A stretch of DNA of 61,177 bases, the filler included, from Sphacelaria rigidula (taxonomy: Eukaryota): the NCBI GenBank assembly GCA_964200075.2. It is 10 parts of 10 records of this genome, joined end to end, with 100 filler letters (N's around TTAATTAATTAA, not from the genome) between each part and the next. Parts side by side here need not be neighbours in the genome. Positions count along the whole stretch, not along the records: positions 1 to 6,028 come from CAXNAA020022698.1; 9 more parts are not named here. One strand, given 5' to 3'. This document shows, piece after piece, positions 1 through 55,050 of this stretch. Position 1 is the first letter of the stretch. Each line of letters starts with the position of its first letter. A model generated the notes under the pieces. It worked only from the letters and a program-made list of their open reading frames with translations, was not told the DNA's origin and did not search any database. The position numbers and the translations under genes were made by a program.

Positions 1-3000
1 GGGCTGGGGGCGGGGGGGGGGGGGGGTACTCATTTGTTGCTTGCCTTATAATAGTCGTTTGACCATTGACCACGCACCCCTTTCGAGACGGAGCACCGTT
101 CCTACTCCGAATAGAGGTACCTCCAACATTTCGGCGCTCATTACGTTCCTTTCAGACATTGCACGAAAACGTTTAACACATCTTATCCCCGTCCTGTTTC
201 GCCGTCTGTGGTCACCATCATATCCTCGTATAACCCTCGTTTTCTCCCTACTGTCTAATCCATCAAACGAGTTCATGCCATCTCCGTTTCACGTCTCGCA
301 TTTCTCTCTCTCGCACGTCCCGTTCCTCCTTGTATAGTTCACATTCTGCCACTATATGTCTTCTGCTCTCTATTGCTTTGCTACAGGGGCAGTTCTGTCC
401 ATCTACTTTATCCTCCTTTCGACTACTGGTAATTCTATTTCTTCTTTCTGGCAGGTCCAGGTTCTAAACCCGGAACTGCAGTTTCAGATATTTTGCCGCG
501 TCCATTAGGCCATGCAGATATATGTTTTCATCTCTGTCCCCTCTGGCAACCACCCGTATATCTCATCTCCAGGTGTTCTTCCTCGTGTACTCTGCGTTTG
601 AGCGCTCCTTTTCCCTTGATTTTTATCACGTCTCTTACTTCATCTCGTACCCCGAGCCTTCACTCATGGACAGTATTTCGTCTTGGTTTCCTCTTATCTC
701 CTTCCATCCTTTCTCGTTTTTTTATCCCACCTTATAGCGTGTCCTTTCGTACTTTTCTTCCATACAGCCCTATCAACTATAGCCGGCAATCTCTTTCTCT
801 ACACGTTATTTACGATATATTGCCATATCGATTTCCTCATGTCTCAGGTTGTTTTCAAGTGAGTACATTGCCAATTCTCCCCTCAGTGCTGTATCACTCG
901 TCGTTTTCGAGCATCCAAGTATCTTCTTAGCTGCTGCGATCTGTACTGTTTCCAACTTCACCACTTCACGTTCCCCTCGCATACTTCTCCTGCATATTAC
1001 AGCTTTGGTACGATCACGTTGATACATCTCTTAATCCTAGTGTTTAGGAGCGGGTCTCTGAGGATCACGCCTAACTTGCCCATCTGTGCCGTACCCTTTT
1101 CTATTACTTTGTTTATGTGTGCATCACAAGAACAGCTTCTTGAGATCCCTCTCGTACGCCAAGGTATGTATACTGGTCTACGATCGACAGTTCCTGTTCT
1201 CCCCACTTCCATTTGACCTCCACCGGATTTTTCTTATCTTCGTTACAGACGAGTACCGTGCATTTGTTGACGTTCGCTGACACTCTCCATTTCCCAGCGT
1301 ATTCTAGCGCCCTGTCTACCTGTGATCCTTCTGCTTTTCCTGAAATCCCCACAAAATCATCTGCGAGCATCAATCCTGATACCGTATGTTTACCCACATT
1401 GACTCCTTGCTTTGCTGCTTCTATTGCTATTATCAAGCCATGAATAAATACCTGGAATAGAGTAGGTGATAAAGCACATCCTTGTGCAACTCTTTTTCAA
1501 ATACCACAACATTTCGATATTTCCCCGTCCAGCATCACAGCACTTTTGGCACATTCTGTCATCTTTTGTACCATGCTCCACATCTTTCCTCTGATTCCAC
1601 TTTCCCACAATTTTTTCCACAACCCATTTCTCCATACTGTGTCATAAGCCTTTTGCACGTCCAGAAAAAAAAGCAGTACGTTGTCAGCCCGGTGTCTTTC
1701 CTACCCTGAATAATCTTACCTAGTGTGTACACATGGTCTACGCAACTGCGGTCTGGTCTAAATCCTGCGTGCCCCTCGCTGATTTTCTCTTCCGTCTCTA
1801 TTTTAGTTTCGTTCCTACTCTCTCGTTCAAGATCTCGCAGAATGTTTTCCCAACCGTGCTTAGTAGCGCTGTACCTCTATAGTTTCCTGGGTCAGCCTTG
1901 TCTCCTCTTTTGGAAAGGTTGACGACGACTCCTTCTCTCCATGCCTTGGGTGTGTACTCGATTCCCCATATCCAGTTGTACAGCATGGCCATCATGGTGA
2001 TCATTTTCTCTCCACCGTACTTTAGAAATTCATCACACCTTGGACAATAGACGGCATCTATTGCAATAGCAATAGAATCTGCTGCAGTAGATACCAATAT
2101 TGTCGCCCGTAATGGCCATCGATCGGCAAGCTTCCCTTTCCATTGTCGTCGGCAATGTCTATCGATAGGCCAGTTTCCCACACTTTTTGTCCGGGTAGCA
2201 GTCTCTTATGGCCCCACACCGAAATCCCCTGCGGCCCACCAAATGTATCGATGGATAATTTTCCAAATCTTTTGATGACGGTAACTGGTATTGATAGATG
2301 TCTCACGTAATCTGTTGATGACGGCAATGAATCTCGATTGATGGCTCACCGAATCTATTAGTATCGGGAATGACTATCAATGAATGATTTACCAATGCTA
2401 TCGATTACGGCAATGGCTATCGATATATACATCCCAGAATCTATTGCGGTATACGATTTCCATCGATGGCGAGTGACCTTTATTTCTTGTAATTGCCATA
2501 GGCTATCGATCAACTATTGCAACATGTATTGTCCCTTGCAATACATATCAATAGATGTGTTCCACCACCTATCGTGTTCAATAATATATATCGATAGGTT
2601 TTCTCCCGTGTCCGTTGCTCAAGCAATGGACTATTATTGTGTCCATTGTCCAGAGTGTGAAATTCATGAAGTATTCCGTCTGCCCCTGCAGTCTTTCTGT
2701 TCTTGACTTTAGCTACGCACTCCTTTACTTCATCTCTGGTAAACTCTCTCTGCAATTCTGTCGAGCCACTATTCTCCCGTTTTGATGTCTCTACATTTGC
2801 CTCTGTGCACACGTTGATCTCCTTCTCGAATTCCGTGTCGACTTCGTTTGAGTTCTTGGTGTTCCCAGTTTACGAGAATGCTCGACTGGCACTTCTCTTT
2901 TCCCCTTCGAACTACTGACCATTTTACCGTCCTGTCCCCGTAGTGTGGCTATCCCCTTGTCCATCTTTCCTGCCTGGTTTCCCAGAATCCCTTTTTTCTC

Positions 3001-4830
3001 TACCCGCATTTGTTTCATCCCGCCATCGAAATCTTCATTTGTTTTATTTACTACATCTTCCCATACTCCCCTCTTTTTTTCTTCTGTACCATTGTTTTTA
3101 CTTCCTTTCGAGCTTGAGTATACCCCTCCCATCCTGCCGTAGTTTTACTTAATGTACATCTCGCGTGGGCCGCTCTCCTCACTCTTACAGCCTTTTTTCT
3201 CTCCTCATCTCACCATTCGACTGCTCTGTTGCATACAATCAGTTTATTCTCTATGACTTTACTCGCTGTGTTCTTGACCATCTGCTCCCATCCTTTGATG
3301 ATATTCGCTCCTGTCCGATTTATTTCCATTTCAGTATCAACTGTTCCTACGCGTTCCAACAGCTGGGAAAATTGCACTGCATTCTTGGCCATCTCTTCAT
3401 GGAACTCTTGCCGTTTTTCTTCCATATCTTGTTTATCGATTCTCCATTTGTACAACTTCCTACCCCGCCTATTTACTTTGCTCGTAGCTCTCGTCTGTTG
3501 ACTTTCTGTCCATATTAGGCAGTGATATGTGGTTCTCACGTCCACCTGGCATACATGTACTTCCATTTCTTGTCTATTTCCATACTCTACCACTGTATAG
3601 TCAAGAATGGATCATTCTCTCTCGTCTATATATATATATCCTAGCCAATGTTCATTGCGCCTCTGGCTTTAGTGCTCTATCGTCCAGCGTTTTCATCTCG
3701 TTATGCTCGAGGAACTTGAGCATTTCTACCTCATTCATGTTATTCTTGTCTTTCCCGTATCGTCCAATGGTATCATCCGGTTGACCTGCTCTTCCTACCC
3801 TTGCATTAAAATCTCCCACTAACATTACTTATCCTTGCCTTTTACACTCATACACGTCTGCTGCTGTCTCTCCAAACCTCCGCTGTATATAGTTCACCCT
3901 ACTCTCCGATTCTGGGGGCATATAGATGTTCTCTACGAAGAAGTCCTTCGTTCCCCGCTCTCCTTGTACCCTTATCCATATGCTCTCGTCGAATTTCGCG
4001 TCGTCGATCACTTCTCTCCTGTCACACAGGTGTTCCTTTACTAAGAATCCTACTCCCCCGGGTCCCCTGCTCATGGGCTTCTGGCCCTTCCGCTTCCCCA
4101 TCTATGCGTACTCTTTAACTTTGCATCCTATTAACGCCCCTTCTTTCTCCCATGACCCTTGGATTCCCACTATATCTAGGTCGTGCTTCCTTGTTTGCTC
4201 GACTATCTCTATTCTTTTGCGCTTGTCTGTGACGAATCCGCACGCGTTCCACGATCCTATTTTCAACTTTCTTTCCAAATCATTATCTGCTCTTGTGTTG
4301 TCTACTGTTCTCTCTCCGCCGCCTATACTTCTACTCTCCCTTGCTTGGGTGTTCTTCCCATTTCTCAGATGATTTTCGTCTGTTTGCTTCGGGCCGCTAT
4401 GTCCCCGCCCCCGGGTACTCACCTGTTCCCGCCTCTCTCTCCCTCCGTTTACCCGTGGACTACGCCCTAGACTTAGGTTTGTTGTTCCATTAGCTATGCG
4501 CACTCTCCGTCCTACTCTACTAACCCATGCCGACACCTTACTTGTCTCTATCTTTTCCCACTCCTTGCTCGCGCTCTGTTTTATTGTGACTCGGAAGCGT
4601 TCTCCCTCACTTTCTACCTTTCCTCTTGCCAAACAGTATAACCCAACTCCATTGCATTTCCTTTTGAACCCTATTCTCGTCATGTCGCTACGAACTCCTA
4701 ATACCACCACTTCTAGTACTTTACCCGTCCACTCTTTACTTCTCCATCCGCCCTTCCTTACCGTCTCTCTTTGAATCTCGTTCGAGATAACCTCCAGCTT
4801 GTTCGTTTCGTTTGTATTGGTAGAATATAG
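1..4830 (-). mobile_element. Near full-length, degenerate non-LTR retrotransposon (LINE) with APE endonuclease, reverse transcriptase and C-terminal Zn-finger
   Basis: Minus-strand fragments occur in the expected order. APE motifs: LKIGSWNACG, DIVGIQ, GGVGFLVKE (4290-3830). RT motifs: KTAGADGI, PKAWREGVVVNL, PGNYRG, LMLADDFVGIS, YTYLGV (2700-1110). A C-terminal CPC..E..H....C motif lies at about 335-395. The 3' end abuts a G-tract at 1-26. There are many stops and frameshifts. Confidence 0.93.
2034..2659. mobile_element. 626-bp MITE with 8-bp TSD (hAT-like), inserted in the LINE RT
   Basis: TIRs are CACACCTTGGACAATAGAC (2034) and GTCCATTGTCCAGAGTGTG (2641-2659). TSD AAATTCAT is at 2026-2033 and 2660-2667. 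Excision restores the LINE frame GADGILHEFLKYGGE. Confidence 0.9.
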
Positions 4831-4944
4831 TCAACGTACTGGGACATCCCAATCCTAGTACTTGTTGGGGGTCTGGTGCCTTCCACTTCTTTTCCTGCCT
4901 CACCGACACTAAATAATGTCTCAGGGGAAAGGAGATACATTGTG

Positions 4945-5575
4945 TCTCTATTTCACGTCTATATCTGTGCTGTGTAATGGTAGGTTGAAAACAAAAGCAG
5001 GGTTAACTTCTTCATTTCATGTCTATATCCAGGCTATATAATGGTAGGGTAAAGAACAGGGATGAGTAGCTTTTCTATCTCATGTCCGTGTACAGGCTGT
5101 GTTATGGTAGGTTCAAGAGAATGGGTGGTTAACTTCGTTTTTTCGTGTCCGTGTCCGGCCTGTATAATGGTAAGTTAAAGAAAAGCAGGGATATCGTCTT
5201 CATTTCATGTCTATATCCGAGCTGTGTTCCAGTAGGTTAAAGAAAAAGCAGGGTTAGCTTCTCTATTTCATGCCTATGTCCGGGCTGTGTTATGGTGGGT
5301 TCAAGAAAAAATGAGGGTTAGCTTTTTCATTCCATGTCTGCCCGGGCTGTGTTATGGTAGGTCAAAGAAAAAGGGGGGGGCTAGCTTCTCTATTCCATGT
5401 CTATGTCTGGGCTGTGTTATGGTAGGTCAAAGAAAAGGGGTGGTAGGTCAAAGAAAAGGGGTGGTTAGCTTCTCTACTTCGTGTCTGTATTCGGGCTGTG
5501 TTATGGTAGGTAAAAGAAGAGGGATGGTTCGCTTCTCTATTCAAGTCTATGTCCGGGCTGTGCTATGGTAGCGAA
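4945..5575. repeat. Tandem repeat, about 61-bp unit, about 10 diverged copies
   Basis: The unit GGTTAGCTTCTCTATTTCATGTCTATGTCCGGGCTGTGTTATGGTAGGTYAAAGAAAA recurs. Confidence 0.9.
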
Positions 5576-6128: not shown

Positions 6129-6761
6129 GCATGATCATGAGTACCCCTCCCCCCCCCGTGCGCATAATATTTTCCCCCATTCTTAGTGGCAGTGACCCAA
6201 TCGGGCCGATTCTTTGATCTGCATTCCGTAGACTGTCCACGACGTGGAAAAACACGATGTCGTGGATTTGAGAATCTCGGGCAGTAGAGGAAATACAACA
6301 GCAGTTGTCATGATTGGGGATGGCCGTTCGCCAGAGGCATCACTGTGCGCCTTGAAGAGGTCGAAAGAGTGAGAAGGTTACCTGTGGGAAATACGAGTGA
6401 CCGATGCCGGTGAACATTGACGCTACGCTAATGGAAGTTTTGAGCTCCGTGCTAAGAGTGTTCTAGCCTCGTGCGCGATGATTATCCCGAGAATGAAGAC
6501 TGGGATTCGCGCGCTTGCGTGCGTGTGCCTGCGGCAAGAACATAAGGAACGGCCACTGAATACTGTAGTCCACAAAACTAATCTAGCAGTACCCAACGTG
6601 GCGCAAACGAGGTTCGGTATTCGATTGAGCACTCCACGCTATCTGGGATGGAGGGGGGTCTATTGCGCCAGTCTGTTGTTGGCGTCCCTGAACGATCTGC
6701 GGCTGTATTTGCATCGAAACATACGTCCTGGAGTAATGGTGAGAAGGTAGGGTTGTCGGTA

Positions 6762-6810
6762 GTGATGGTGATGACGATTATGATTATGATGGTGATGATG
6801 ATGATGGTGG

Positions 6811-6875
<65 letters not shown>

Positions 6876-6895
6876 CGACGACGACGACGACGACA
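6762..6895. repeat. (GAT)n/(GAC)n microsatellite
   Basis: Visible trinucleotide run; it explains the poly-His/Ser/Ile/Met ORFs in the track. Confidence 0.97.
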
Positions 6896-7894
6896 ACGGC
6901 GATCACCATGATCATGGTCATGACAGCGATGGCAGTAGTATATATGAGAGACAGCGAACAAAGTCGATCGGTATCAGCAGCGAACATGATTCAGGGATGA
7001 ATTTGATAAGCGTGACTTCAATGAGAACTTTCACAGTCCACGTCAGGCTGGCAAGAATACCGAAACGAATTTTGAACCCAGTCCAGTGAAAGCAGTACAA
7101 ATATCTCAGTCCCGGGAAGGACACCCGGAAATAATCACATGATTGGTGTGCAAGAGGCCCATCTGTCACCACATCGTGAAGGGTAGCTTACCGGGTTCCG
7201 CTTGCCGAGTTTTCGGCACACTCGATCTGGAGGAACTCCAATTTCCAACCATTGCGCCACCTCCGCCTGTCAGGTAGGCAACAACATACATCCACGATAA
7301 AGGAGGCAATGTCTCCAAGCTCATCGAGGAGCGGGGTGATGCTGGCACGGCCGCAGTGGGCGGGAAGAAGGTAGAATGGAGAAAATAAACTTTCGGCACC
7401 GTCGTCAGATGTTCGGAGTTTTGTGGAGAGGAAACATGGATTCCCTGTGCATGAATCAGTGACCCCCAACTAGCTGTGTTTTATCCAGCACTTTACTCTC
7501 CGTGGGGAAGGGTCAGAGTGCGGGGTACACGGAGCTTTGTCGCTACTTGTGTTTACCTCTGTTTGAACATCGTTCTGATGTCAGGACAGTCTGGTATTGC
7601 CGTTTTCCCTTACACTCGAACCCAACTTTCCGTGATCCCAGATCTACCCCCCTGAAACAGAGATGAAACCCCAACACTCTCGTGGTGCCAATTTACAGAG
7701 AGTATCGCAAACTCTTGCGCATACGGTACAGGTATGCCTGTTACTCCCCTTACCCATGTGCCAACAAGATTACGATTTGTCATATATTCCTGATTAAACA
7801 CGATCCGCGCACTTCCTCGTGTCTCTACGCCAAAGTGCGTTGCAGGAGAGCAGTCTCATTGTTTAAAAATCATTACCTGGGTCATTCGAGATAT

Positions 7895-12256: not shown

Positions 12257-12316
<60 letters not shown>
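12257..12316. repeat. (TAA)n microsatellite
   Basis: Visible run at the contig start. Confidence 0.98.
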
Positions 12317-12317
<1 letters not shown>

Positions 12318-12769
12318 CCGGTATTTGTTCATGGTTGACCGCCTACAATCACAACCCTAGCCCTAACCCTTGGTGTGCTTGATGTAAACTGTATACTCTA
12401 AGGCTTCAGTGGCAAGCTACTACGAAGATGGTGCATAGTAAGGCCCGGGGGGCATTTCGGAACTGGAACCATGCCATTCATCATTAACTGCTTCTCACCC
12501 TCTCTTTCATATCCTAGACTCGCAGTTTCACGGGAAAAGCGTTCAACGCGGTTTCTGAACCGTTCCATATCACTTCTCAACGTGAGCTAAAAAGATTCGC
12601 CTGCGTTTCACCACATTGGAAGCAAGTGCACATATTAGCTTGACTACTGGCGGGCCGGGTCGGTATCCTCGTGTCGTGGGATAGACAAACGGTGTTGCGA
12701 CCCTCTTTGACCAACTATCAGCAGCCCATTCGTTTTTTGATGCTTTTTGATGATCTGGCCGTTTGTTGG

Positions 12770-18384: not shown

Positions 18385-18483
18385 GGCGAAAACCCGGCGT
18401 GCTCCATCCCGGCTTTATAGGGATGCGACGTCAATGGTCTTTTGATTATGGCATGCAAGATCATGAGTACATCTCCCGCCCCC
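18385..18483 (+). mobile_element. C-tract SINE-like family A, 3' 100 bp
   Basis: GGCGAAAACCCGGCGTGCTCC...GGGATGCGACGTCAATGGTC...GGCATGCAAGATCATGAGTAC followed by a C-rich tract. Confidence 0.85.
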
Positions 18484-20274: not shown

Positions 20275-20432
20275 GGGGGGGGGGGCGTACTCATTTGTTG
20301 CCTGCCTTAGTCGTTTGATCGTTGACCATGCGTCCCTTTCGAGACGGGGCATATTGTACCGGGTAGTGATGGGTTGATCCTTCGAGACCACGGACTCGTC
20401 CCGAAAAAGGGGGGGGGTTCAAAGTGCGGCAA
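20275..20432 (-). mobile_element. SINE-like family B carrying the LINE 3' tail; its body recurs at 48734-48830 (+)
   Basis: 20275-20350 matches the LINE tail at 15-95. The body CGGGA.GAGTCCGTGGTCTCGA.GGATCAACCCAT is shared with 48774-48808. The 5' limit is uncertain. Confidence 0.7.
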
Positions 20433-21309
20433 ATACACATGCAAGCCGGAGAAACAGTTCCAGGAACGGAGTCTGCCAGTGACACACTTGAGCGGACTCG
20501 AAACGTTCAAACCTGTGAAACTGGATCTCTAGCAACGTAGGTCACACGATCTCCGGTATAAGGACGCAGAACAATAAGGGTCACCGCATGAACCCTGGTT
20601 GAACGGGACCGGTACAGCCGTACCGATCCGTTCACTCATTCTTCTAGACTACCCTTGACCACGGGCGAATCCTTGCCTAAACGTCAAAGCGAAAGGGTCA
20701 CCTAAATTGCCCAAGATCGGTTTTTGACCTAGGACCCCGAAATTTCGGTAATCGAAATCCAAATTCGTATGGCGTGTAGTAGTTGTCAATAGCTACCAGC
20801 AAGTGAAGAAATCGAACCATATTTTGAAGATTTGGTGTGGATACGAAATTTTCAATTCTCCGGCTTCTCATCCCCAATGAAAAAATCCATCCCCAATTTG
20901 TAAAATCCAGGGCTAGCAGCATCGCACTGTACACATCACTACAATACTGTATATAACTCGGGAAAGAGCCCCGATCAGTTTGACACGTGTCCCGCTCCAT
21001 TTTCATCTGGATATCCGTTCCGAAATGGTTCGCCCCGAATCCTCTCCGAAACAAAGATATCCGGCGGGAAAATCCGTTTACAGTGTCCACCGGATAACGT
21101 TTTGCCGTCGGCAACCCGTTTTCCGCACGGTACGAAGACTTCCACCCGGAGAAACTGCCGTCTGGTAGCCTACAGGCTAGGGTTTTCTCGACTGGCAGTA
21201 AGGATAGTCGTGGAGGCTTTTCAACTGTATTAGCTGGTTCTAACTGCTTCAACGGACGGTGCTTCGGTGCTCATGTGTACGCATGGCGCCGACACCACGG
21301 GAAAGTCTG

Positions 21310-21654: not shown

Positions 21655-23310
21655 AGTGGATGTGGTAGCTCGTGTAGTACGACACCTCTACCCGGGCCTT
21701 GATCCCGTGCCGAGAAGTTACCTCGTCGATGAGAGACGCCATCATCTCTTGCATCGTGGTCAGAGTCGGGAGGTCGTCTACGCGAACGACGAGGACCGCC
21801 ATGATCTCTGCCCTGCTTTGAGCTTCCGGAAGACGCGGGGGTCGCGGCGTGCGATCCCTCGAGACCTATTGCCTTCAGGTCGCTAGTGAGCTTCAAGTTC
21901 CAGCAGCGGCCGGACTGTACTATACTACGCCGTAGATCGCTTTGCTCAGCCTTCCCACGGCGTCGAGAAACTCCTGGTACTCTCCGGGCAGCTCGGTGCA
22001 GATCTCAGTGTCGATATCGGTCATCCGAGAAGCTTGCTGTTTCGGAGGTGACGCGTCTTCATGTCCTTGAGTGTCCCAGCAACGAGCGCCATGCGGATGG
22101 ATGGTTCCGCCGTGCGTCACAGCAAGTGACGGTTACTCCGTGTAGTGCAGTCGTTTGACCCGCCTGCATCCCTGAGCGACGAAACGTCACTTGTGTTTCA
22201 CCACCCCGCCATGCTTCCCGATCTTTCTGGCGGAAACGCGCCCCACCGCGAGTGCCATCTTCCCTTCCGGACGCGGTACCTGACTCCATGCGTCCTTGTT
22301 GGTTGTCCCACCTATCTTCGCCCCTTCTACAGCGTCCCAGGATGACCATTCTGGCGATACCATGGCCTCCGTGTAACTCTGCGGTTCGCGAGGGAGATTC
22401 TCCCCTCGCCCAACAGGCTTCGCGATTGCCGCTTGCATCACGGGGGTATTCTATTCAGCCGGAGCCACGTTGCGTGAGACTCGAACTCGCCGTTGATGGA
22501 CAGGGTGCAACTCAGCGCGGCCTGACCGCTCCCACTTCCGCTTTCCCCTCGACCGCTCCTGTTATGTATGCTGAGAATTTTCCGGCCTAGTAGTCCGCGA
22601 TTCTCCGAAGTTCGGCTGGTGGCCTTCACTTCTCCTCTGGCGTGGACTCCACGGCTTAGTTTCGTCGCTCTCCGGCGAGTTTTGGCTACCTAATGGCGAC
22701 TCCATGATTTCCTCCTCCGCTGGCGGCTCGTTGCTCTCCAAGTATGTTTCCTCAACTCGCTCAGCTTGTATATCGCTAGCCTTCCGTCGCCCCGCTCCAC
22801 AGCCACCCACGTTTTCGACCGTCTCTGCTACTCCCCTTTCCCCCACATGGTGATTGATTACCGGCCTGGTCTGGCGAAAACCCGGCGAGCTCCGTCGTGG
22901 CTTTGTAGGGAAGCGAGGTCAATGGCCATATGACTCCGGCATGATCATGAACACCCCTCCCCCCTCCCCCCGATACAGGCTGGCTGCTGTGCCTTTTCAC
23001 CGCTCGGTCATTCCTTGGTGCTCTCTGGAGGGTTGGGAGAGATGCCCAAGATGATTCACTCCTCATCTCGTGTCTCCAGCTCTCCGCATTCCACATAAAA
23101 CCGACCGGTGCGAATGGGTGTAGTTTTGCAGTTGCCCAAGCGGGGGAGGCTTGCCGTACCACACCTCATACAGCGTGACGCCTTTTGCATTTGACGTCGT
23201 TTAGCACATCCCTGTTGTGTTAGCGGTGTGGTGCCACGCCTCCGCCCAGAACCTCTGGACGTGCGCGCCTGGTTCCTTCTTCTAGATGATAGTCTCATCT
23301 CGCAGCAACT
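21655..23310 (-). mobile_element. Ty1/Copia relic (integrase C-terminus, spacer, RT)
   Basis: Integrase end FWAEAW...TLYEVRYGKPP...LHPF (23260-23110). RT motifs EPQSYTEAM, RFVAQG, ELPGEY, GRLSKAIYG and LVVRVDDL (22400-21770). Heavily mutated. Confidence 0.85.
22849..22971 (+). mobile_element. 5'-truncated C-tract SINE-like family A copy inserted into the Copia relic
   Basis: Matches the 3' 125 bp of 53648-53957. Both flanks are C-rich (CTCCCCTTTCCCCC and CCCCTCCCCCTCCCCCC). Confidence 0.85.
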
Positions 23311-24022
23311 CCGGGGCCCTGTCGGCCACGCCGTTCGACGATTATACATGCAGATCTACAGACGTCACTACAACAGATGTAAAACGCCACCGTTGCTCTC
23401 GACCCCCCCCCGAAATGTATTCCTATCTGGTGGATAGTGCGGATACCATAGTGTCAGCGTAGCCCGCGATTTTCTTTGGCAGCTAATGTACCATGTAGAG
23501 CATCTTGCGCGGACACTGCAACACAAATAGAACACGCGCACATTTATTTCGGGGAGCATCATTGAGCCTCTCTCTTCAACTAGTGGCCACCCGTATATCA
23601 TTTCATGCCCTGAATATCCGGATATCCGTCAACCGTCGCGATCCGCAAATTTATTTCTCTGGGCGAGACCGTCCGAATTCGTTATCCGCTCCGGAGCGTT
23701 TTTTTTGGTCACGTAGCACATCTGTACAATCCATACAGTACTCGTCAGGAACCATTTCATATGTAGAAAACAAAACACTAGTCACACGGAGGTTCGAAAA
23801 AAAGAAAAAACGCAGACATCCATAAAATTGAAGGTCACCTTTGTTTCAGTTTCGGATTGCCCAATGGCATACTCTCGTGACAAAGAAAGACTGACGTACC
23901 CACCACTCTTCAGCGAACAACGCGACATGAACGACGTATTACTCGCAGACAGTATATTCCAAGGGGGGAAAAAGGCTTAGCTTCTACAACTGTGCCACAC
24001 TACCGCATCCGTTTCTTCCCCC

Positions 24023-24084
24023 AGGGATGCGTGGTCAATGGTCGAACGACTAAGGCAAGCAATAAATGAGTACCCCCCCCCCCC
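24023..24084 (+). mobile_element. Isolated 5'-truncated LINE 3' tail ending in poly(C); a very degenerate opposite-strand copy at 24322-24412
   Basis: AGGGATGCGTGGTCAATGGTCGAACGACTAAGGCAAGCAATAAATGAGTA followed by C12. Confidence 0.85.
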
Positions 24085-24512
24085 TCTAGCAGCCTTGAAC
24101 GCTTAACGTATGCAGTATACAGGGTCATGCACCACATTGGAATACTGCTGTGACATTGTAGCTCAACGGTTGCGATGCGCGCGCAAAAATCGATACACTT
24201 CCTGAAACTTGATAGGAAGGTCCCGTGGTTCATACTAGAATCTACGATATTGTCAAGGTGCATGATATCATCGTACTTCGGTTAGGGCGACATAATGATT
24301 CTACGGTGTAGGGATACGGTAGGGGGGGGGGGGGGGGCGTTTTCCTTTTTTGCTTGCCTTAGGCGTTTTATCACCGGCCCCGCCCCCCCTCCGGGCCGGG
24401 CCCCGGTTCCTCNNNNNNNNNNNNNNNNNNNNNNNNNNNNNNNNNNNNNNNNNNNNTTAATTAATTAANNNNNNNNNNNNNNNNNNNNNNNNNNNNNNNN
24501 NNNNNNNNNNNN

Positions 24513-24591
24513 CCCCGCGTCGTAGGGAGGCGGGGTCTATGGTCTGTTGATGCCGATCGCATGCATGATCATGAGGCCCCCCCCCCCCCCC
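24513..24591 (+). mobile_element. C-tract SINE-like family A tail (degenerate, contig start)
   Basis: GTAGGGAGGCGGGGTCTATGGTC...GCATGCATGATCATGAG followed by a C-run. Confidence 0.7.
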
Positions 24592-30490: not shown

Positions 30491-31415
30491 CTTTGGGAAC
30501 CCTCCCCGCCCGTCCCCGGGCCAGACGCCTCATTATGAGANNNNNNNNNNNNNNNNNNNNNNNNNNNNNNNNNNNNNNNNNNNNTTAATTAATTAANNNN
30601 NNNNNNNNNNNNNNNNNNNNNNNNNNNNNNNNNNNNNNNNACTCCAAATTTTCAACAACAAATGGCCCAAAATACCCCCCCCCCCTATCGTAGGATGACT
30701 CGGACCCTGTTATGAAGTTTGCGCAGGCGCCACAACAGCACAAATCTGGCACTGGGTACACGCATTGCACCGTTGCGCAACAGACAGCTGATACCATCAA
30801 TCACCGAGGATACAGGAGCTCCTTGTCAGTTTGTTTGTCCCAACCTGCACGCACCCGCCTTGCGTGTCTTCCCCCATCACAGCACTCAACAATAACTGAA
30901 GTACCGGAGCTCGAAGACGAAACAGGCAGCTGCATAGTCGTCACGTGTGATGCCACCCTTATTTTGTGCGACATGAAACAGAGCATGCAGCAGTACAACT
31001 GCTCACGCACTCTCCAGCGCACATCGTACCGTGGTCGCCGTAAAGAGCTCAGATGCACTACAGCACGGCGACAACTACAGCATAGAGATGACGGGTTTGG
31101 GCAGCGCCGTGGTCGTTTGACTCCATGGCGATTTGGGGGGTGTAACAAACGGTACTTACCCGTAGAAAATCCGCCACTCTGCGGACCGAACTGAGGTCTT
31201 CATTTCATCCTGCAAACTTGATGCTGAGTGAGTGCGTATGCCTCTCCTACTCTCTCGGACAATGGTCAACATGTCTCATATGCACAGTCATGCATTGGTT
31301 AGGCGTGCAAAGTAGCCTCTAGATGGGTTGCATTGTGTACGCAAGGCATCCTAGGACTCTCTAATATAGCTTACAACGGCCACACTAGTAGCGGGAGCAT
31401 TCGGCCCGGTTTGTC

Positions 31416-33770: not shown

Positions 33771-36668
33771 ATGTCGACTACGGAGGTACCGACCGAAGAG
33801 CCAGCGGAGACGATTGTAACCCCAGTTGTTCTGAGAGAAGAGTTGCGGCCTCCCAATTACGGGAATTTGTATTCTGAGTGTGCTTCTCGTTCGTTTTATA
33901 CGAAATATGTGGAATACAAGAAGCGGGTGGAGCATGCGAATGCGGGGGGTGCGTTCAGGCATCAGGTTGTATCCATGGCGCGACTCGTGCCTACCCCCCT
34001 CTAACGCGTTTTTGCGCGAGGATTACACGAGAAGAACACAATAACGCCGCTACAATTGGCTGCAGCGATCAAGAAGCATGCAGGGCATGCGGCGGGCGCT
34101 GAGGTAGAGCTAACCCAGGCGTCCGCGGCCGTGGCGAAGGCTGTCGCCACGAACCACAAGGGGGAGACCATGCGTGAGAGGGTGGAGCCAATCACGGGAA
34201 AGTTGGAGACATATTTTTTCCGAAAACCCCAACGTTGAGATGGTATATCGTTCCTCCGATGGGAAATTCCGTCCAGGGCCCGCTGCGGTGATCACGAAAG
34301 CGATGGTGGAGGGTCTGGCACCGGCGGAATTCAAACAGGCCGTGCTTGTGCAATTGCAGCACGAAACCGATTGGAAGTCAGACCCGTACTTAGTTATGGA
34401 TACCGTGGTGGCTGAGGCTCAGGCATGGCGGAAGATTGAAGTATTCGGGAAATCATCCACTTCGTCGCCGCAGGCATTGATCTCGCGTAACCGCGGATCA
34501 AAATCCGCAGGCAGTGCCGCCGCCAACATCACTTGCTTTCAGTGTGGTCAAGTAGGCCACTACGCACGCAAGTGCCCAACGCCTTCCGAGGGGGAGTCTG
34601 GGCAGACAAGTGCCGCGCGCCCTCGCCATCACAAAGGAGGAAAAGGTAATCGGGGTGGTGCCGGAGGCGGATCCTCCAGCGGTGGAGGGGTGCAGTCGAG
34701 TTCCCAGCGGCAGCAGCAGCAGCAGGGGCAGCGGCGTCAGGAGGGGTCCGGTTCTGGGTCCGGCTCAGCCATAGGGGCTGCTGCTCCGCAACGGGCGGTG
34801 CAGGTGGGAACGACCACTCAAGTGTCGGGCTTGATGCCGGTCCCGCCGGCAGCAGAGCAAGGCGAGACGCCTGCTGCTGAGCCGGCCGGATTTCAGCTGA
34901 AATTTGGATCCGACGTTGGGTCAGCCGGAGTACCGCTGCAATTTGGTTCTGTGGGCGGGGCTTCGTACCCGCCGGCGGTGCCGGTTACCCCAGCGGGGGC
35001 GTCTATGCCTGCGCCGCACGCGCAGCCGTGGCGCCAAGTGGGGATCACGACAAATCAGTCGCCGGAGCAGGTGCCGGTCGAGTATCAAGAAAAGCGTATG
35101 CCTGCAGAGTTATATCTCCCAAATCAACGGGCGCGGGGAGCCATATCGGTCAACGCTGTGTTGGATTCAGGCGCCCATTTCACGAGCGTGTCAGTGCTGA
35201 TTGTGGGGAAGCTGGAGCGTCCACTTCCTGGTGAGCAAATCCGCATCCCGTTCTCGCTCCGGGCGCGGCAGGCCATCACCGCATCGGGGCAACGTGTAAA
35301 TGTCACGGAGCGTACGATTCCCCCTCAGTTGGCGTTCAGGACGACCTGGGGGCCAGCGAAATTATCCCCGATATCGTTTGCGATCATGCCGGGGACGGAT
35401 GGTGTCGTTCTGTTGGGCTTACCGACGCGTCGGGAACTCGGAGTCGATCCGTATGATCGGCTGTTAGAGTCCCTAAGAACGCAAATGCCGTCGCCCGATT
35501 CGAGTGTCGAGACGCCTGCTTTTTTGGCTAGTCGCAGAGTGAGCTTGTTGGTTGATGCTCTCCAGGAGGTGGGAGGGCGAGTGTCCGAGGAGCGTGATGA
35601 GGCGGTGGAACGCTTGGTGGAGCGTGGCTCCGATATCTTTATGGAGCCGACAGAAGAGGAGTCCGCGCGAATGGCTGCGCTGGAGGAAAGCGTGACGGAT
35701 GCTGTGGCAAATGGCCTCGGAGTCTCAAAAGCGGAGCGCTTGCGTGGCATATTGTATCGCCACGTTAACGCGTTTCGTCGTGCGCTGAGGGGTGATCCCC
35801 CTGCGCGCGTAGAACCCACGAAGGTTACACTGAAGCCAGGGGCGGCCGCGGTGAAGGCAAAACCGAGAAGGTATGATCCGGTAAAGTCCAGTTGGTTAGC
35901 TTCTTGCATGGGAGCTCTTGCGGCGTTTGGGTTGGTGTTCAGGAATCTACAGGCGGCGTGGTCCAGTCCAGCGATGGTGGTGCCGAAGAAGGACTCTTTC
36001 CATCTTGCTAGTGATTACGGAGACGTCAATTTTCAGGTGGAGAAGTCGACGGGTGTCATGCCCAATCAGGAATCCGACATGATAGACCTGTCGAGCGCGC
36101 GATGCTTCGGTAAGCTGAACCTCCTACAGGGGTACTGGCAGATGCCGTTGGCCGAAGAGGCGCAAGAGATATTCACCATCACGACTCCGTTTGGCATGTT
36201 TACCCCGCAACGAGTACCGCAAGGCGTGTTGAATGCTACTTCCTATTTTCAAGGTGTCATGGTAGACTTTTTAGATGGCTTGAAATGCAAGATCTGGGTG
36301 GATGATGTCTTTTTCTTCGCGGATACGGAAGACGAACTGTTGGATACGCTTGATGCAATCTTGGCTCGCTTAGAGAGTGTTGGTCTTCTTGCAGCTGCCC
36401 ACAAGTGTACATTTTTTGCTAGTGAACTAGTGTGGTGTGGGAAAGTATATTCACACGGTCGCGTCTCGCATGACCCGGTCCGCTTGGAAGGGTTGTCTGA
36501 TATGCGGCGTCCAGAAACAGCCGCAGAACTAATGCAATTCCTGCACGCAATGAACTGGTTGCGTACCTCGTTGCCACGTATGGCTGAAGAAGTGGCGCCC
36601 TTACGCATTTTTCTAGAAGAACTCATGGTGGGGGCAGCCAGGCGCACGAAGAGGATGGAAAAAAATCG
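33771..36668 (+). pseudogene. Ty3/Gypsy gag-pol of copy 1 (gag, CCHC knuckle, aspartic protease, RT), cut by contig end
   Basis: Motifs CFQCGQVGHYARKC, VLDSGAHFT, WSSPAMVVPKKD, LLQGYWQ, RVPQGVLNA and KIWVDD. There is a stop at 34002-34004 and a frameshift near 34215. The first catalytic Asp reads Asn (KLNLLQGY). Confidence 0.93.
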
Positions 36669-36768
36669 NNNNNNNNNNNNNNNNNNNNNNNNNNNNNNNN
36701 NNNNNNNNNNNNTTAATTAATTAANNNNNNNNNNNNNNNNNNNNNNNNNNNNNNNNNNNNNNNNNNNN

Positions 36769-36981: not shown

Positions 36982-36984
36982 ACA

Positions 36985-39123
36985 GAGAGGGGTAGGCAGG
37001 GCTCAGGCCGAACCGTAGTTGCGTAGACCATGTGTACACATTAGGTGAGATTGTTCGAAGTGGGAAAGACGCCGGGCTGACAACGTACTCTTCCTTTCTA
37101 CATGTACAAAAGGCCTATGATGCAGTGTGGAGATATGGACTCTGAAAAAAGATGTTGAAAGCTGGGATCATAGGAAAGATGTGGAGAATAGTGAAGAAGA
37201 TGACAGAATGATGCGAGAGGTGCTATGGTGCTAGATGGAGAAATATCGAGATACGTTGATATTTCACAAAGAGTTATACAAGGCTACACGTCATGCCCCA
37301 CTTTATTCAAGCTTTACATTAGTGAGATGATGGTAAAATTAAAAAGCAACAAAACAAAGAGTCAAGATGAGGGAAGATGCCGTGTCAGGATTGATGTCCG
37401 CGGATGATTTCGTGGGGATATCGGAAACACCGGAAGGGTTGCAGAAACAAGGAGAGAAAGCGCTAGAAAACACTAAGAAGTGGAGTGATAGCAAATGTAA
37501 AGAAATGCACGGTAGCTATATGCAACGCAGATAAGGAAAACCCGGTAGAGTTCAAATGGGAGTGGGGAGAAGAGAAGTTGCCAATCGTGAACCACTATAC
37601 GTACCTCGGCGTAAATGTCTGAAACAAAACATCTTGGGATGCACACATAAATGAAGTAATAAGAAAGGGTAAGGTACAGATAGGCAGGATGGACGTGGTC
37701 CTGAGAGACTCGCACCTCGACACTAGGGTCAAAATATGTATTCTGATGAACGTGATTGTATCTAAGCTAAAACATGCAGGAGGAGTTTGGGAAGGAAACG
37801 CTAAATTGGCGAAGCAGCCGGAAACAGTACAGATGACAGCAGACAAGACAATACTCGGATACTCAAGTTCTTCTTTACGCTCTATTTCAATTTCAATTTT
37901 CTCCACTCAATGCTGCATTATGCCACTTCTTGTATATAAAACAAATCCTTGTTCAAAAGGGCCTTTCTGGCCCTTGTCTGTCGTCTTTCGCCCGAAAAGA
38001 GGACCAGGCGGATGTTGACACCTCGAAATAACTTGCTCTATTCACTGAGACCGTTTCAGAGCACCATTGCGGTTTCCGTATATCAAAGTCTTGTTTTTGG
38101 CCCAACTTGCATTTGCAATGATGAACTGCCAAGAGCAGGTGCTCTGAAACGGTCTCAACGAGTAGAGCAAGTCACTCCAACGTGTCAACATCCGCCTAGC
38201 CCTCTTTTCGGGCGTAAAACAACGGAGAAGGACCAACCAAGCACTTTTCAACAAGATTTTTGTATCGACACATAAAAAGTGGCCTCAGTCGTCGTTCTTG
38301 AGCAGAACTGGCGATGTACGTACTTGAAACAAACATAGATACCAGAAAATTGAAATGACAATATTAGGTGAGTGACATGGCAAGAAAAAAATCGCCAGCC
38401 ATGTTGATAGGGCTGTACGGAAGAAAGTCAAGAAAGGGTAGGCTGGAATAAGACGGGATAGCGTAGTCGAGAAAGTATGGAAAGTACGGCAGGAAGTCAA
38501 GACGACATTATGTCCATCGGTTCATGCGGGGGGTGCAATGCAAGAAAGAGTAAGAGACATGATCGAAAGAAGGGGAAAGCAAGCGCTAAGATGGAAAATG
38601 GAAGAGGACGAGCGCCTGAAGATGTAAGGGGGGTTGAGGAAGGGGAAAAGGATGAGAAAATATCTGCGCGGCCGACTGGACTACGCGAAAAAGTTGAAAC
38701 TGCGACTTCGGGTGGGGGACCTGGACCTGCCAGAAAGAAGGAAGAAGTACACCAGTAGTCAGGTGGAGGAGGAAGTAGATACACATGATTACCCCTGTGG
38801 CACAGCAACGCAGAGAGTAGAACTCAAAGAGTGAGAGGATGTGAACTATACGAGAGAAACGGGGCGTCTTAGAAGGAGAAATGGGAAAAGTAAACGAAGG
38901 TGGCACAAAATGGTTCGGTAAACTTGATAATAGCGAAAAAACGATCGCGATACTAGGAGACAAATGGTGTCCACAGACAGCGAATCAGGAAGGGGTGGCA
39001 AAATAATACGTAAAGGGCTTTTTGCGCATTATATGAAAGAAACTTATCAGTGAGCATCCACATGTTGGAGGTGTCTTCATCAGAAATAGGAACGGTGCTC
39101 CGTCTCGGAAGGCATACGTGGTC
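36985..39123 (+). mobile_element. 5'-truncated copy of the same LINE family as 1-4830
   Basis: RT motifs RPNRSCVDHVYTL, VQKAYDAVWR, QG...PTLF and ADDFVGISE, plus KLRLRVGDLDLPERR. The 3' end TAGGAACGGTGCTCCGTCTCG matches 84-104 on the minus strand. It is interrupted by a MITE and ends at a Gypsy LTR. Confidence 0.9.
37921..38284. mobile_element. 364-bp long-TIR MITE (PIF/Harbinger-like)
   Basis: About 143-bp imperfect inverted arms (37921-38064 and 38138-38284) end in (G/T)GCCAC...GTGGCC. The flanks TTA and TCA fit a decayed 3-bp TSD. Confidence 0.85.
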
Positions 39124-39379
39124 TGTGACGAAAATACGCCATACCTTGAGTTGGTAGTGATGATATGGATAATGACTAGGGGCACGGAGATTCTGGAGGG
39201 TTCTGGATAATGACCAGGGGCACGGAAATGGTATATGCAGGTCTAGAAAGCTGGTGCCATGGCAGGACTCCTGAATAGTGAGAATGTTGTAAAGGCTGAC
39301 AACTGAAACTGAGGCCAGTAGAAGTGGGGAGTTCCTCAATAGCAGTGATCCAACAGTGCTTCCACTGGCCGGCGTCACA
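39124..39379 (+). repeat. 5' LTR of Ty3/Gypsy copy 2 (256 bp)
   Basis: TGTGACG...CGTCACA termini; homologous to 33239-33500. Confidence 0.88.
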
Positions 39380-45905: not shown

Positions 45906-46014
45906 GGCGAAAATCGGGCGTGCTCCGTCCGGGTCTTGTAGGGATGCGAGGTCAGTGGCCGTATGAATACGGCATGCAAGATCACGAGTACACCCCCTCC
46001 CCGCCCCCCGCCCC
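45906..46014 (+). mobile_element. 5'-truncated SINE-like family A copy with C-rich TSD
   Basis: The family A tail is flanked by CCCTCCCCGCCCCCGCCCC (45869-45887) and CCCTCCCCGCCCCCCGCCCC (45995-46014). Confidence 0.85.
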
Positions 46015-47550
46015 TCTCCCCCCTTTCCCCCGCCTCTTCCCTGCTTCTGTCTGGTTATGTATATATATGTCCGTTTGTCTGCCTGTATCGATCTATCTGT
46101 CTTCCTGTCTCTCTGTTTCTCATCTGTCTATCCACCTCTTGTCCAACTGTCTTGGTTTGCATTGTTCACCTCTTTTCTTGCCTCTTTTCCCCCCTCTGTT
46201 TCTATCCCGGGCTTGGTGTTGAACGAACTGGCAACAAAAAGGTGTTGCTCATGATGACCTTGCAGGTGGCGGTGGGGCGACTCAAGCATATAAGCCTCAC
46301 TTCGGGTGTTATCGACGCTAGAAACAGGGGCAAGAAATTTCGATGGCACGGAAAGGTTCGAGAAAATGATCCAAGAACTGTATCAAACGACCCCCTTGTT
46401 TTTTTGTTTTATTTTAACTTTTTTTTATCATTTGCTTGGGCCCACACAAACTATCACAGTTATCGAAATTTTTTGGGGGGGTAATCGAGAAGAAATTGCA
46501 CAATTCTTTCTAATTTTTTATTTTTGGAGATTGGAACACATTGTGTATTCCCACAAATTTGGCGTCCCCATTTTCAAAAGATACTCTAGCTGTAAAGAGC
46601 AGACCCGATGCTGTTGTGACTAATTTGATACCTGTATTTGGCGGGTCGAGAGCATGTTATGAAAGAATAATACTGTCGTCTGTTTTTGTGGCGTTCTTTT
46701 TATTTCTTGTACGTGTGTCTTGTTTTCGGTCGTTTTGTTTTGTTGTGGTTTGCGTTTGTCGTGTGATTTACATTGTGATACATGTGTTTTGGATGAAGTG
46801 ACGCTACATCAGGGTGCACATTAGTCAGCGTCTGGATACCGGATGAATGATCTCAATCGGGGTTTTTCGCAGACGGTTTGTCCCTTCACTAAAAAGTTTG
46901 AGTCGGTAGGCATTGGAAGAAAACACAGCTCGTGCTCCGGACACCTTTCCCAATTTTTTGTTTTCGGAATAGTAAAGAAGAAAAACCTGTTTATCGAGGG
47001 GGTGTAGTTGATCGTGCATGGTCCCCCGAATTCGTTTTTTCGGCTATAGCGCGATGAATATCTTGAAAAAATATATATCGAGAACTGCGCCACAAAATTG
47101 TTCATCACGGCGATCCGGGCCATTCGTTGGAGCGAAAATATCAAGAAGCGAAAACCCAGGGATGTACACTCTTCGGACCCGCGACGACCGGCAATTCCGT
47201 AACTCGTTCAAATTTTAATCGCTGCTTTTTTTGTTTGTTTTCTCGGAGTTTGTGCGTTGCTCAGTTTCTCGACTTCCGAAGTTCTGAAGCAAACAGTAAC
47301 CGTGATGAATTTTGGTAAACGGAATACCCGCAAAAATCGTTCTTGATCAAAATATAATGTTTAATTGTTGACTACCGTAGTCATCATGCTATTCCACACC
47401 ACGCTAGTGTTTAGTCTTCTACGGTCGTACTTTTTTTGCTCTTTGTTCCTCACCCTCGTTTGTGGTATGTCTGTACAAATTTTCATCTCCTCTTTTCTTC
47501 CTGTTCTTTGTTTTTATTCACCCTTGCTACCCCCGTGTGCGTGAGGACAG

Positions 47551-51691: not shown

Positions 51692-53647
51692 CTATTCTCA
51701 TTTTGGTTTTGAAATATTGCGGCAGACAGTCAATACAGTACAGGTAATACACACAGCAGCATGGGGGGCGTGGGGGGCAGGACAGGACAGGGGAGGGGCA
51801 TGGAAACTTCAACACAAGGAGTTACCGCACGAAGCGATGGATATGAATCCCGGGTGATAACATGTTGGGACTCGACGAGTCATCACCTTGGTGTGATGTT
51901 CAGGGGGTGTTAAACTACGTATGGGTCGTATGAAATGGTGGACCCCTGTTAACCCTTCGACAGCAACCCCCCCGCGGATGGACTGAGATGGACTATGCCA
52001 CTTTTTGGGTTCAGAATCATTCCTTTGTCACAACACAAAACGCCTTTTTCATGAACATGTGGATATTTGTCATCTATGTAGAAAATAGTATCGGAGAACC
52101 CCTGACCAGTTTTGACCCTGCAGTCAATTGCGTGCAGAGTTGGTATGTTTGTTTGCTGTATATCTTCACTGGATACAACGTCAAGAGGCAGTACAACTGT
52201 GCCATCGCTCTCCACTGGACACAATTCTACTGCATGCTGCTGATGCCTCTGCCTAGTGCTCGACAACACTAAAGTGTGAAGCTATGCTAGCAGCACATAA
52301 GGGGCCAGGCACGTGGTGTAGACCACGAGCAGAACACAAAACAAGTTATTTATATCCATGTAATCTATGGTTGGTTCCCCATGACCAAAATGAGTCGTGG
52401 GGGTGGACAGCGAATTAGTCCAATGTAGTCCACCCGAACCGGAAGAGGGTGCTCATTTTGACGATCGTGATTGGTCAGAATGGGCATCCCGCGCGCCTCT
52501 CGGGCCTCGTGCACCGCTCATGATTCTCCGCGGGAAACTTCCAAATACACACGGTTAACTTGGTGAGCTTTTCGTCTCCTCTGCGGACAGACACCCCTCC
52601 CCCTCAAAAACCACGTGGAAACCCCCGAATGTCTTCGGACTGTCAGCCTGTGAAACTGTTACAAAGCGACGCTCACTGTCTGAGGGTTAAGGCAGCATTT
52701 TGACTAACCAAAAATGCCTGACTAATTCGTAGTCCTGCCTTAGCCCGAGGTAAAATTGGTACCGTGTTACTGCGGGATTTCAGTATACTGCACTCTGGTG
52801 TACTATACTGTCGGTACGGCGAATTGAGGGGGTCGGCGGCGACAATGAACTACGGTACACTCTGGACAGCAGAACCATCAATACTTGCAACAGGAAAAAG
52901 CTATGCTGAGTATAGTATCGGCCTGCCTATTGCATATTCACTGCTATTGCTGCAAAAGCAATCGGCGATAGATCGATACTTTACGCAGCATTTTTTTTTT
53001 TCATTTGCAACTGGTGCTGGTCTATTGTCCGGGGCGTGGAATGAGAGAACACAAAAAAAGTCTGATTGCTGGCCAGGATTCGTGAAAAATCCGTTTTTTT
53101 GTCAACGAGGGTCTGCAATAAAGGGAAAAGGCGGGTGATATAGGCCATACAGTAGAAACGCCCATCTCAGTGGGGGAAATGTTGTCAAGCCAAAAATACG
53201 CCGCCTTATTGTTGGTAGTCTCGCCTCATTAGGTGCCGCCTTAACACGGGCCCACCCACTACTATACGCTTGTCTATTACGGCAGTAGCCTTTCTTCGGT
53301 TTGCTATTTTGGCAGCTTACACACAAGTCATATCGGTGCAGAAGCAAGTGCTTCATGGTATAGTCATAAGTGAGCAATAGAGCTAGTACAATTTGTCGAC
53401 GACGAAAAAGTTTCGAGTCGAAAATTGCCGTATGTAGATATATATGAAATGTATGTTATATTTTGCAGTAAAGTACGCACGTCGAGGGACCAAACAAAAA
53501 TCTCACCTATGGATAATGACCGACGACAAAATCAAAATCATCAACACCACAATGTGCTTCATCGAGGGACGGCAGGGGTGCTCAGAGGTGACAAGCAAAA
53601 ATCGAATTCTAGGCAACTCGACATGTAACAAATCCTTGAAACTTTTA

Positions 53648-53957
53648 GGGGTGTTCTCATGATCCTGCATGCCTTAGTCGTGATAACGTAGAACTCGCAT
53701 CCCTTTGAAGCCGGGACGGAGCACGCCGTGTTTTCGCCGGACCAGGATCGCAATCAACCACCAAGCGTAAAGTGCCGTGATGTGTTCGGCGAGTTGCGGG
53801 AGGGGTGAGTTGCATCCTGCGAAGATTATTCGGCCCGAAGCGTACTGGTTTGTCTTGCACACGGGTGACAGTCTCGAATGGGTTGCTTCACTCCTGGTAT
53901 CGCCATTTACAGAGCCAGCCACGGCTTTCACACTGCCCCATGGGTGTCTCACCATTG
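53648..53957 (-). mobile_element. Apparently full-length (about 310 bp) SINE-like family A element
   Basis: Joins the 5' body seen at 36769-36981 to the tail seen at 18385, 22849, 45906 and 54980. Confidence 0.85.
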
Positions 53958-54979: not shown

Positions 54980-55050
54980 GAGAGTGTACTCGTGATCATG
55001 CATGCCATAGTCATAAGACCATTGACCTCGCATCCCTACAAAGCCGGGAC
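54980..55050 (-). mobile_element. Family A tail (cut by contig end)
   Basis: GTACTCGTGATCATGCATGCCATAGTCATAAGACCATTGACCTCGCATCCCTACAAAGCCGGGAC. Confidence 0.85.

Follow-up and report, generated by a model that had tools for sequence, protein, structure and literature searches.

The window analysed here, a 61,177-nt stretch of DNA from Sphacelaria rigidula (assembly GCA_964200075.2), carries a long interspersed element (LINE) whose 3' end runs into a homopolymer of C, and homologous tails followed by C-runs are dispersed through it in high copy number. The unique sequence of these tails stops at a fixed base, and the C-run that follows is real and marks the end of the repeat. By analogy with mammalian L1, we consider it probable that the LINE and a short partner form a pair of the stringent type, the (C)n tail of which would pair with a nicked target strand ending in G's just as the poly(A) of L1 pairs with T. 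Described LINEs end in poly(A) or short repeats and a C tail is unusual; because polyadenylation does not explain it, such a tail makes it possible to test, in a natural setting, how the tail, the target and the reverse transcriptase (RT) cooperate at the first step of insertion. The LINE family and its partners are the commonest repeats here. The anatomy is of a kind already catalogued in another genome, that of brown-algal RTE-X elements with (C)n tails and C-rich duplications. What is added by the present analysis is a second genome, a C-run lying inside the target-site duplication of one copy, and a shared 3' module that is coding sequence.

Tail copies and the boundary of the C-run

The window is made up of ten pieces of 6028 or 6027 nt with spacers of the form N44-TTAATTAATTAA-N44 between them. 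These pieces look like successive contigs of an assembly that is fragmented and sorted by length, and contigs they are, as an earlier note on this DNA had taken them to be, and their ends are therefore true contig ends. The sequence is eukaryotic and transposon-rich, with Gypsy-like and Copia-like polyprotein frames. Assembly contigs (Logan) of four public runs from two studies, X1, X2 and X4 among them, were aligned to window contig 4. The best-matching run may derive from the sample of the window itself, so the independent support is that of X4, which belongs to another study than X1 and X2, and of the three other public assemblies that supplied outside copies of the tail (n = 3: L049, L084 and L241, the last on the same contig as L247, an intact relative of the LINE described below).

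On the minus strand the start of the window reads ...AAGGCAAGCAACAAATGAGTAC, then C15 G C5 A G CCC, and there the contig ends. This C-rich stretch (1..26, minus strand) is the tail of LINE copy A, and the type-1 profile match of the same copy adjoins it at 26-121 (minus strand). A tail profile built from eight tails recovered 11 copies in the window at E <= 0.007 (2e-23 to 7e-3), to which a 16-nt stub is added, and an exact 22-mer tail search gave 3 matches compared with 0 expected. The earlier note had described a minus-strand LINE end followed by a C-run without an A-tail, which is what we observe at the window start. It had also listed twelve further tail positions, 11 of which correspond to profile copies or to the stub; the remaining one, 39060, lies in a LINE 3' region that has no C-run. 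Only seven of the 20 contig ends could be placed inside the tail repeat, compared with the eight that the earlier note had counted, and breaks at 7/20 contig ends point to a limit on short-read assembly of such genomes.

Two types of tail were distinguished. Type 1 (...GGGATGCGTGGTCAATGGTCAAAYGACTAAGGCAAGCAACAAATGAGTAC), the end of the LINE itself, occurs in copies A, B and C, in the divergent copy D, and in the three outside copies. Copy B (20275..20353, minus strand; profile match 20287-20373) consists of a 5'-truncated tail of 67 nt followed by G and C11, and sits inside another high-copy repeat. Copy C (24023..24084, plus strand; profile match 23982-24073) comprises the last 50 nt of the tail and C12; its 5' truncation point is borne out by 91-321 contigs per run in which LINE sequence continues at that place. 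The divergent tail of copy D (24322..24412, minus strand; profile match 24347-24400) ends ...AAGGCAAGCAAAAAAGGAAAACG and is followed by C16 at a contig end.

Type 2 (...GGGATGCGAGGTCAATGGTCTTATGACTATGGCATGCATGATCATGAGTAC-A; ...GGCATGCATGATCATGAGTAC-A-Cn) accounts for 8/12 window copies. Copy G is found at a contig end (5966..6028, minus strand; profile match, then A C7 T C GG CCC), and copy H, the 16-nt stub (6129-6144), at the start of contig 2, where it is followed by CCC T C9 (6129..6157, plus strand). Copies K (18385..18483, plus strand; profile match 18385-18470, then ATCTCCCGCCCCCG) and I (24513..24591, plus strand; profile match 24511-24575, with C15) both stand at contig starts, and copy J stands at a contig end (54977..55050, minus strand; profile match 54986-55050) with its run reduced to ACTCTCCCG. 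Copy E (45906..46050, plus strand; profile match 45901-45991) is followed by a degenerate C-rich run of about 60 nt, and its 5' flank is C-rich too. Copies L (22848..22971, plus strand; profile match 22871-22950, then ACACCCCTCCCCCCTCCCCCC) and M (53647..53770, minus strand; profile match 53654-53742, run reduced to CACCCCT) are short non-autonomous elements, the former about 103 nt long and the latter with the same 5' start.

At least nine C's in the 15 nt after the tail were found in 13/15 copies (the 12 in the window plus L049, L084 and L247) at a background probability of 0.013, so that most copies do carry the C-rich 3' flank that the earlier note had expected of them. Within the window alone the figure is 10/12, the exceptions being M and J. 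A C-run of at least 5 within 25 nt of the tail was likewise present in 13/15 copies compared with a background of 0.027. The outside copies end GAGTAC-G-C8 (L049), GACTAC-G-C11GC5 (L084) and GAGTAC-G-C13 (L241, that is, L247), and no A-run was seen at the end of any of the copies examined, all of which end in C-rich runs. The last unique base before the run is fixed per subfamily (GTAC, GTACG or GTACA), with type 1 ending GAGTAC(G)-Cn and type 2 ending GAGTACA-Cn. Among near-identical tails, the run itself can be as short as 8 or reach 17 and more.

Beyond the C-run the sequence is unrelated from copy to copy. In the contigs of the four runs, 53-351 contigs per run at 24084 and 76-365 contigs per run at 20275 pass through more C's into non-consensus sequence (agreement 0.38-0.47). 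The earlier note had allowed that element sequence conserved beyond the run might make it internal to a longer repeat; we looked for such sequence and found these differing downstream flanks. The G11 run of copy B is bridged by X1 and X2 contigs with 0 differences and is spanned by X4 too, and five window copies are flanked by unique sequence on either side. In the tail bins of contig 4, the summed word depth reaches 1.5e5-1.1e6 (X1, X2, X4) compared with 10-35 in unique bins, a measure of abundance that is not a copy number.

The LINE and its short non-autonomous partner

LINE copy A occupies 27..4922 on the minus strand. It is degraded with broken frames, and retains an apurinic/apyrimidinic endonuclease (APE) region at about 3649-4707 and an RT region at about 1155-2034. 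Comparison with the intact L247 places its 5' end near 4905-4922. L247 is a 5259-nt contig that was binned into a bacterial metagenome-assembled genome (MAG) and is 74-77% identical to copy A. It contains an intact open reading frame (ORF) of 1382 codons in a single frame (999-5144) with matches to Exo_endo_phos (8e-11) and RVT_1 (7e-32). The similarity between the two begins near L247:908 and window:4922; the full element measures about 4.3 kb (L247 908-5165), and copy A is collinear with this layout despite its degradation. Copy A also holds a foreign insertion of about 626 nt (2034..2659, no strand assigned) that is absent from L247 and is not LINE sequence; the insertion is rich in short repeats containing ATCGAT. 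A second LINE copy (36984..39138, plus strand) extends from the RT to the C-terminus; its similarity is lost about 50 nt short of the end, and a C-run is missing. Upstream of the LINE in L247, at about 440-540, we also noted an older stretch in inverted orientation that resembles the tail (...GGTGCTCCGTCTC...GGCAAGGCATTTGTTTCATGAG...); some 40 further bases lie between it and CCCCTCCCC.

The reading frame of L247 ends ...SRNGAPSRKGCVVNGQMTKASNK, followed by TGA, GTAC, G and C13. In copy A the family stop codon TGA is found at 30..32 (minus strand), 4 nt (GTAC) before the C-run, and the coding frame upstream of it is broken by a 5-nt insertion (TATTA) in the tail. The tail had been translated in the earlier note as RNGAPSRKGCVVNGQ.TKASNK-stop, with the ORF possibly ending about 3 nt before the run. 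This translation is correct for the family, as seen from L247 (...SRNGAPSRKGCVVNGQMTKASNK*), and incorrect for the window copy, where TATTA disrupts the frame; the stop codon does lie just before the run, at a spacing of four bases. The LINE thus has practically no 3' untranslated region (UTR), and the tail that it shares with its partner is therefore coding sequence.

The best named protein matches of the LINE are Ectocarpus proteins at 58-65% identity, with 58-64% for the RT fragment of the window copy, and the Ectocarpus protein P0013 ends ...NAPSSRGRVVNGLTAK, which is homologous to the tail-encoded peptide. A metagenomic protein, P0007 (1328 aa), has the same APE and RT layout and matches human L1 ORF2p at 1e-25. 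The C-terminal motif G-(C/R)-V-V-N-G plus 5-8 residues and a stop is present in many of 135 public relatives, down to about 35% RT identity, and conservation of the terminal module may extend to a wide group of marine LINEs. The LINE is an APE-type, single-ORF element of a brown-alga-like genome and most likely the counterpart of Ectocarpus RTEX-1/2. A looser form of the motif, G-(C/R)-(V/E)-(V/A)-(N/D)-G plus 5-8 residues and a stop, was noted separately in many LINE ORFs among P0019-P0135, which come from public metagenomes and assemblies.

The alignment of type-1 with type-2 tails covers about 65 nt and has 20 columns that are invariant, and type 2 contains a TAG within the frame that codes in type 1. 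Copies L and M begin at the same point, about 117 nt before the end, and have nothing in common upstream of it. In both, about 30 nt only precede the LINE-like part; copy E is shorter than either. Judged from these alignments, type 2 belongs to a short non-autonomous element of at least about 117 nt with a homologous LINE-type end of 60-90 nt. The dispersed copies had been regarded as 5'-truncated LINEs, whereas most of them (8/12) are members of this separate short family with a homologous tail. A tandem arrangement was also observed, with one contig joining a type-2 tail via 25 C-rich letters to the start of the next unit. In the window ARAGORN reported 0 tRNA genes and Rfam 0 matches at gathering score, and neither detected a tRNA-, 5S- or 7SL-derived head on the type-2 element. 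With no pol III head detected there by these two programs, the element is not demonstrably a short interspersed element (SINE).

Copies outside the window were sought with several patterns. A 20-nt tail pattern proved too degenerate in scans of metagenomes and genome contigs, where only L049 and L084 among 240 loci carried the tail. The exact type-1 pattern had one true match in public genome contigs (L241), in a MAG that carries a single copy of the element, and the exact type-2 pattern had one candidate match in genome contigs, L242, located on a 1.84-Mb contig from a MAG with the title Acidobacteriaceae. Both exact patterns gave 0 matches in viral contigs. A protein-guided scan of genome contigs returned three loci (L247, L248 and L249); the 3' end of L248 is missing, and L249 was set aside as not relevant, being a LINE of 26% identity whose tail is (CTTGTAT)n. 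The same kind of scan found no LINE relatives in viral contigs.

Insertion junctions and candidate modes of priming

Whether the C-run belongs to the element or to its target is best seen in copy B. The 10-nt sequence CCCGGTACAA adjoins the 5' junction of this copy (20354..20363, minus strand) and reappears right after G and C8 (20268..20277, minus strand), where its CCC runs into the C-run. Across the site, the uninterrupted host repeat reads ...GTGTACCGGGGGAGA in 55-63 contigs (X1 and X4; agreement 0.53-0.57), this paralogous site being found in contigs with a loose end at 20368. The duplication of copy B encloses both the tail and the C-run, and the run therefore belongs to the insertion. 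Taken with the uninterrupted host sites, CCCGGTACAA indicates that the target had about 3-5 C and that the insertion brought the rest. The host repeat (20395-20997) is likewise highly abundant, its summed word depth being 2.5e4-2.3e5 (X1, X2, X4) compared with 10-35 in unique bins, and it contains a G9 run at 20409-20417.

A run of at least 3 C within 10 nt upstream was found at five of the seven definable 5' junctions (B, C, A, L and L247), scored by eye in a small sample. The exceptions are copy E, with C7 at -16 to -22, and copy M, with none. The runs on the two sides are asymmetric, with 0-7 C on the 5' side compared with 8-17 or more on the 3' side.

Since (C)n cannot be produced by cellular polyadenylation, the tail would have to be copied from a template, kept up through slippage, or supplied by an enzyme of the element itself. 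In the mechanism that we consider probable, the endonuclease would nick the bottom strand beside a short C-run, leaving a 3' end of G's, and this G-ending primer would pair with the (C)n that terminates the element RNA. The RT would then recognize the conserved terminal module, as in stringent-type LINEs, and copy the RNA, with homopolymer slippage giving runs of between about 8 and at least 17. The C-run itself belongs to the inserted element, where it acts as a one-letter microsatellite tail. G:C priming beside a C-run would lead to duplications that start with C's, and old C-tails would become new targets, which would give rise to tandem copies. The earlier note had offered either a C-tail or priming on G/C tracts; from the run inside the copy B duplication, its fixed start and the short C-runs in the 5' flanks we infer that both halves seem to apply. 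An extension of this mechanism, that it is a G:C version of the T:A priming of L1 in which the RT-recognition module doubles as the code for the conserved C-terminal peptide (G-C/R-V-V-N-G...stop), we regard as doubtful.

Several observations weigh against G:C priming by a stringent-type RTE-X pair. Only copy B has a clean target-site duplication: that of L247 is imperfect (GTTGG, or CCCGT(GT)TGG with an indel), copy C gives CCCCC, and in copies E, L and M the outcome is either ambiguous or negative. The 5' junctions were set by eye, and the tabulation of flanks and duplications covers the 12 window and 3 outside copies. The pattern Cn-G-CCCCC-A is common to copy A and L084, which come from different assemblies, and is unexplained by simple slippage. 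A fold of the tail that the RT might recognize is not significant, with single-sequence z-scores of +0.37 to -1.17, and the consensus fold (-3.9 kcal/mol, 9 pairs) shows a both-sides change at 1 pair only (U-A in type 1, A-U in type 2). Finally, clade membership is by proxy, the RTE-X assignment being drawn from Ectocarpus protein matches and shared anatomy.

Some of these features would also be accounted for if the run arose without a template, either because the RT adds G's to the nicked 3' end before copying an RNA that ends ...GAGUAC or because the RNA is C-tailed after transcription. Reverse transcriptases are able to add untemplated nucleotides, and such tailing would fit the range of run lengths among near-identical tails, the unique sequence that always stops at the same base, and the odd interruptions (Cn-G-C5-A) in copy A and L084. 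However, slippage on a templated homopolymer accounts equally well for the length variation, and the C-runs in the 5' flanks together with a duplication starting CCC fit base-pairing between primer and tail. Non-templated tailing is unlikely in our estimation. We know of no description of target-primed reverse transcription started by untemplated G-tailing of a nick; should the run arise untemplated, for example in this manner, it would represent a way of starting the reaction not described in the literature searched.

Less likely still is site-specific insertion into pre-existing long C/G tracts, in which case the C-run would be target DNA. The C-rich 5' flanks (C5GC7 in copy E, C5 in copies C and L) and the tandem copies linked via C-rich stretches are what such targeting would leave, but the asymmetry of the two flanks is not, nor is a boundary between unique sequence and run that is fixed per subfamily. 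In copy B, moreover, CCCGGTACAA leaves 3 C for the target, and the uninterrupted paralogous sites have about 5 G. Pure homopolymer-site specificity was rejected, as the run is not on both ends and the copy B duplication encloses it. We also rejected, as highly improbable, an artefact in which poly-G read ends (such as two-colour sequencers yield) or assembly breakage made the runs, or a run internal to a longer repeat, because, even though several runs are located at contig ends, both readings are contradicted by the five window copies with unique sequence on both sides, by the recurrence of the runs in contigs of four runs (two studies) and three other assemblies, and by the lack of consensus beyond the run.

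Other repeats in the window and comparison with known systems

The window also contains C- and G-runs with no recognised tail copy attached (C11 at 30675-30685, G17 at 51170-51186 and C12 at 55455-55466), and contig 6 starts ...CAACAACAAATGGCCCAAAATA-C11. Such unattached runs may be the tails of other, more divergent non-autonomous families. Long frames at 34114-36720, 40140-41471 and 55491-58361 are Gypsy-like (gag knuckle, protease, RT) and Copia-like (integrase, RT), with two related gag-pol copies on contigs 6 and 7. A (TAA)n array occupies 12257-12320 at the start of a contig, and at 6578-6973 simple repeats give His and Ile runs when read on the minus strand.

Mammalian L1 has a poly(A) tail, a TT/AAAA target and duplications that start with A. 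The window LINE resembles it in its variable homopolymer tail and in a duplication that starts with the letter of the tail, in addition to the match of P0007 to ORF2p, and this likeness suggests pairing of the tail with the nicked target strand. The two differ in that the letter in L1 is A and not C, and the window tail has no polyadenylation origin. Furthermore, the window LINE has a conserved 3' module shared with a partner (stringent, not relaxed), only one ORF and next to no 3' UTR. A second group for comparison is the microsatellite-specific LINEs (Waldo, Mino, Kibi and others), reportedly described by Kojima and Fujiwara in 2004. There too a LINE end is associated with a simple repeat; however, the repeat there serves as the target and is present on both flanks, whereas the long C-run here is confined to the 3' side and, in copy B, is enclosed by the duplication.

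Stringent LINE/SINE pairs offer a parallel to the proposed pairing of LINE and partner. UnaL2/UnaSINE1 ends in (TGTAA)n and the I element in (TAA)n, tail repeats thought to permit template slippage according to PMC3747384. As in these systems, the window LINE has a partner with the LINE 3' end and a tail of short repeats. It differs from them in that the repeat unit is a single base and the module lies in coding sequence and not in the 3' UTR; moreover, no supported stem-loop was found in the tail, and no tRNA, 5S or 7SL head was detected on the partner.

The closest likeness is with the RTE-X elements of Ectocarpus. The earlier note knew of no description of a C-tailed LINE, and this claim of novelty did not hold, since the supplementary annotation table of PMC12477816 (Genome Biol 2025) lists RTEX-1a_Ec32 as 'single EN-RT ORF; (C)n 3'' and RTEX-2_Ec32 with '(C)n termini/TSD', and gives the target-site duplication (TSD) as 'C-rich' for all RTE-X entries. 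Among the Ectocarpus LINEs of that table, (C)n is noted for RTE-X entries only. The passages of the main text available to us name RTE-X and its partners as the most abundant families and do not discuss the (C)n tail. Among the papers listed by literature searches for poly(C)-tailed LINEs, no description besides PMC12477816 was found, and tails are unmentioned in the available portions of PMC11005252 and PMC10294476.

As far as the table entries allow comparison, Ectocarpus RTE-X elements are longer (5.5-5.9 kb compared with about 4.3 kb here, at a protein identity of 58-65%, the consensus being compared by description only), as are their non-autonomous partners RTEX-N2 (188 bp, annotated 'could be SINE') and RTEX-N1 (607 bp, with '60 bp 3' end 83% RTEX-1/RTEX-2' and 'can be present in tandem'), compared with at least about 117 nt here. 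To the 'C-rich' duplications of that table the window contributes one clean 10-nt CCCGGTACAA and, by eye in a small sample, C-run flanks at 5/7 junctions. In the remaining respects the correspondence is close. RTEX-1a/1b_Ec32 and RTEX-2_Ec32 are described with a single EN-RT ORF and a (C)n 3' end, and RTEX-N1/N2_Ec32 as non-autonomous partners with the last 60-100 bp in common and tandem copies. In Ectocarpus, as here, these elements form the most abundant group of transposable elements, and the Ectocarpus proteins that the window LINE matches best have a C-terminus homologous to the peptide encoded by its tail.

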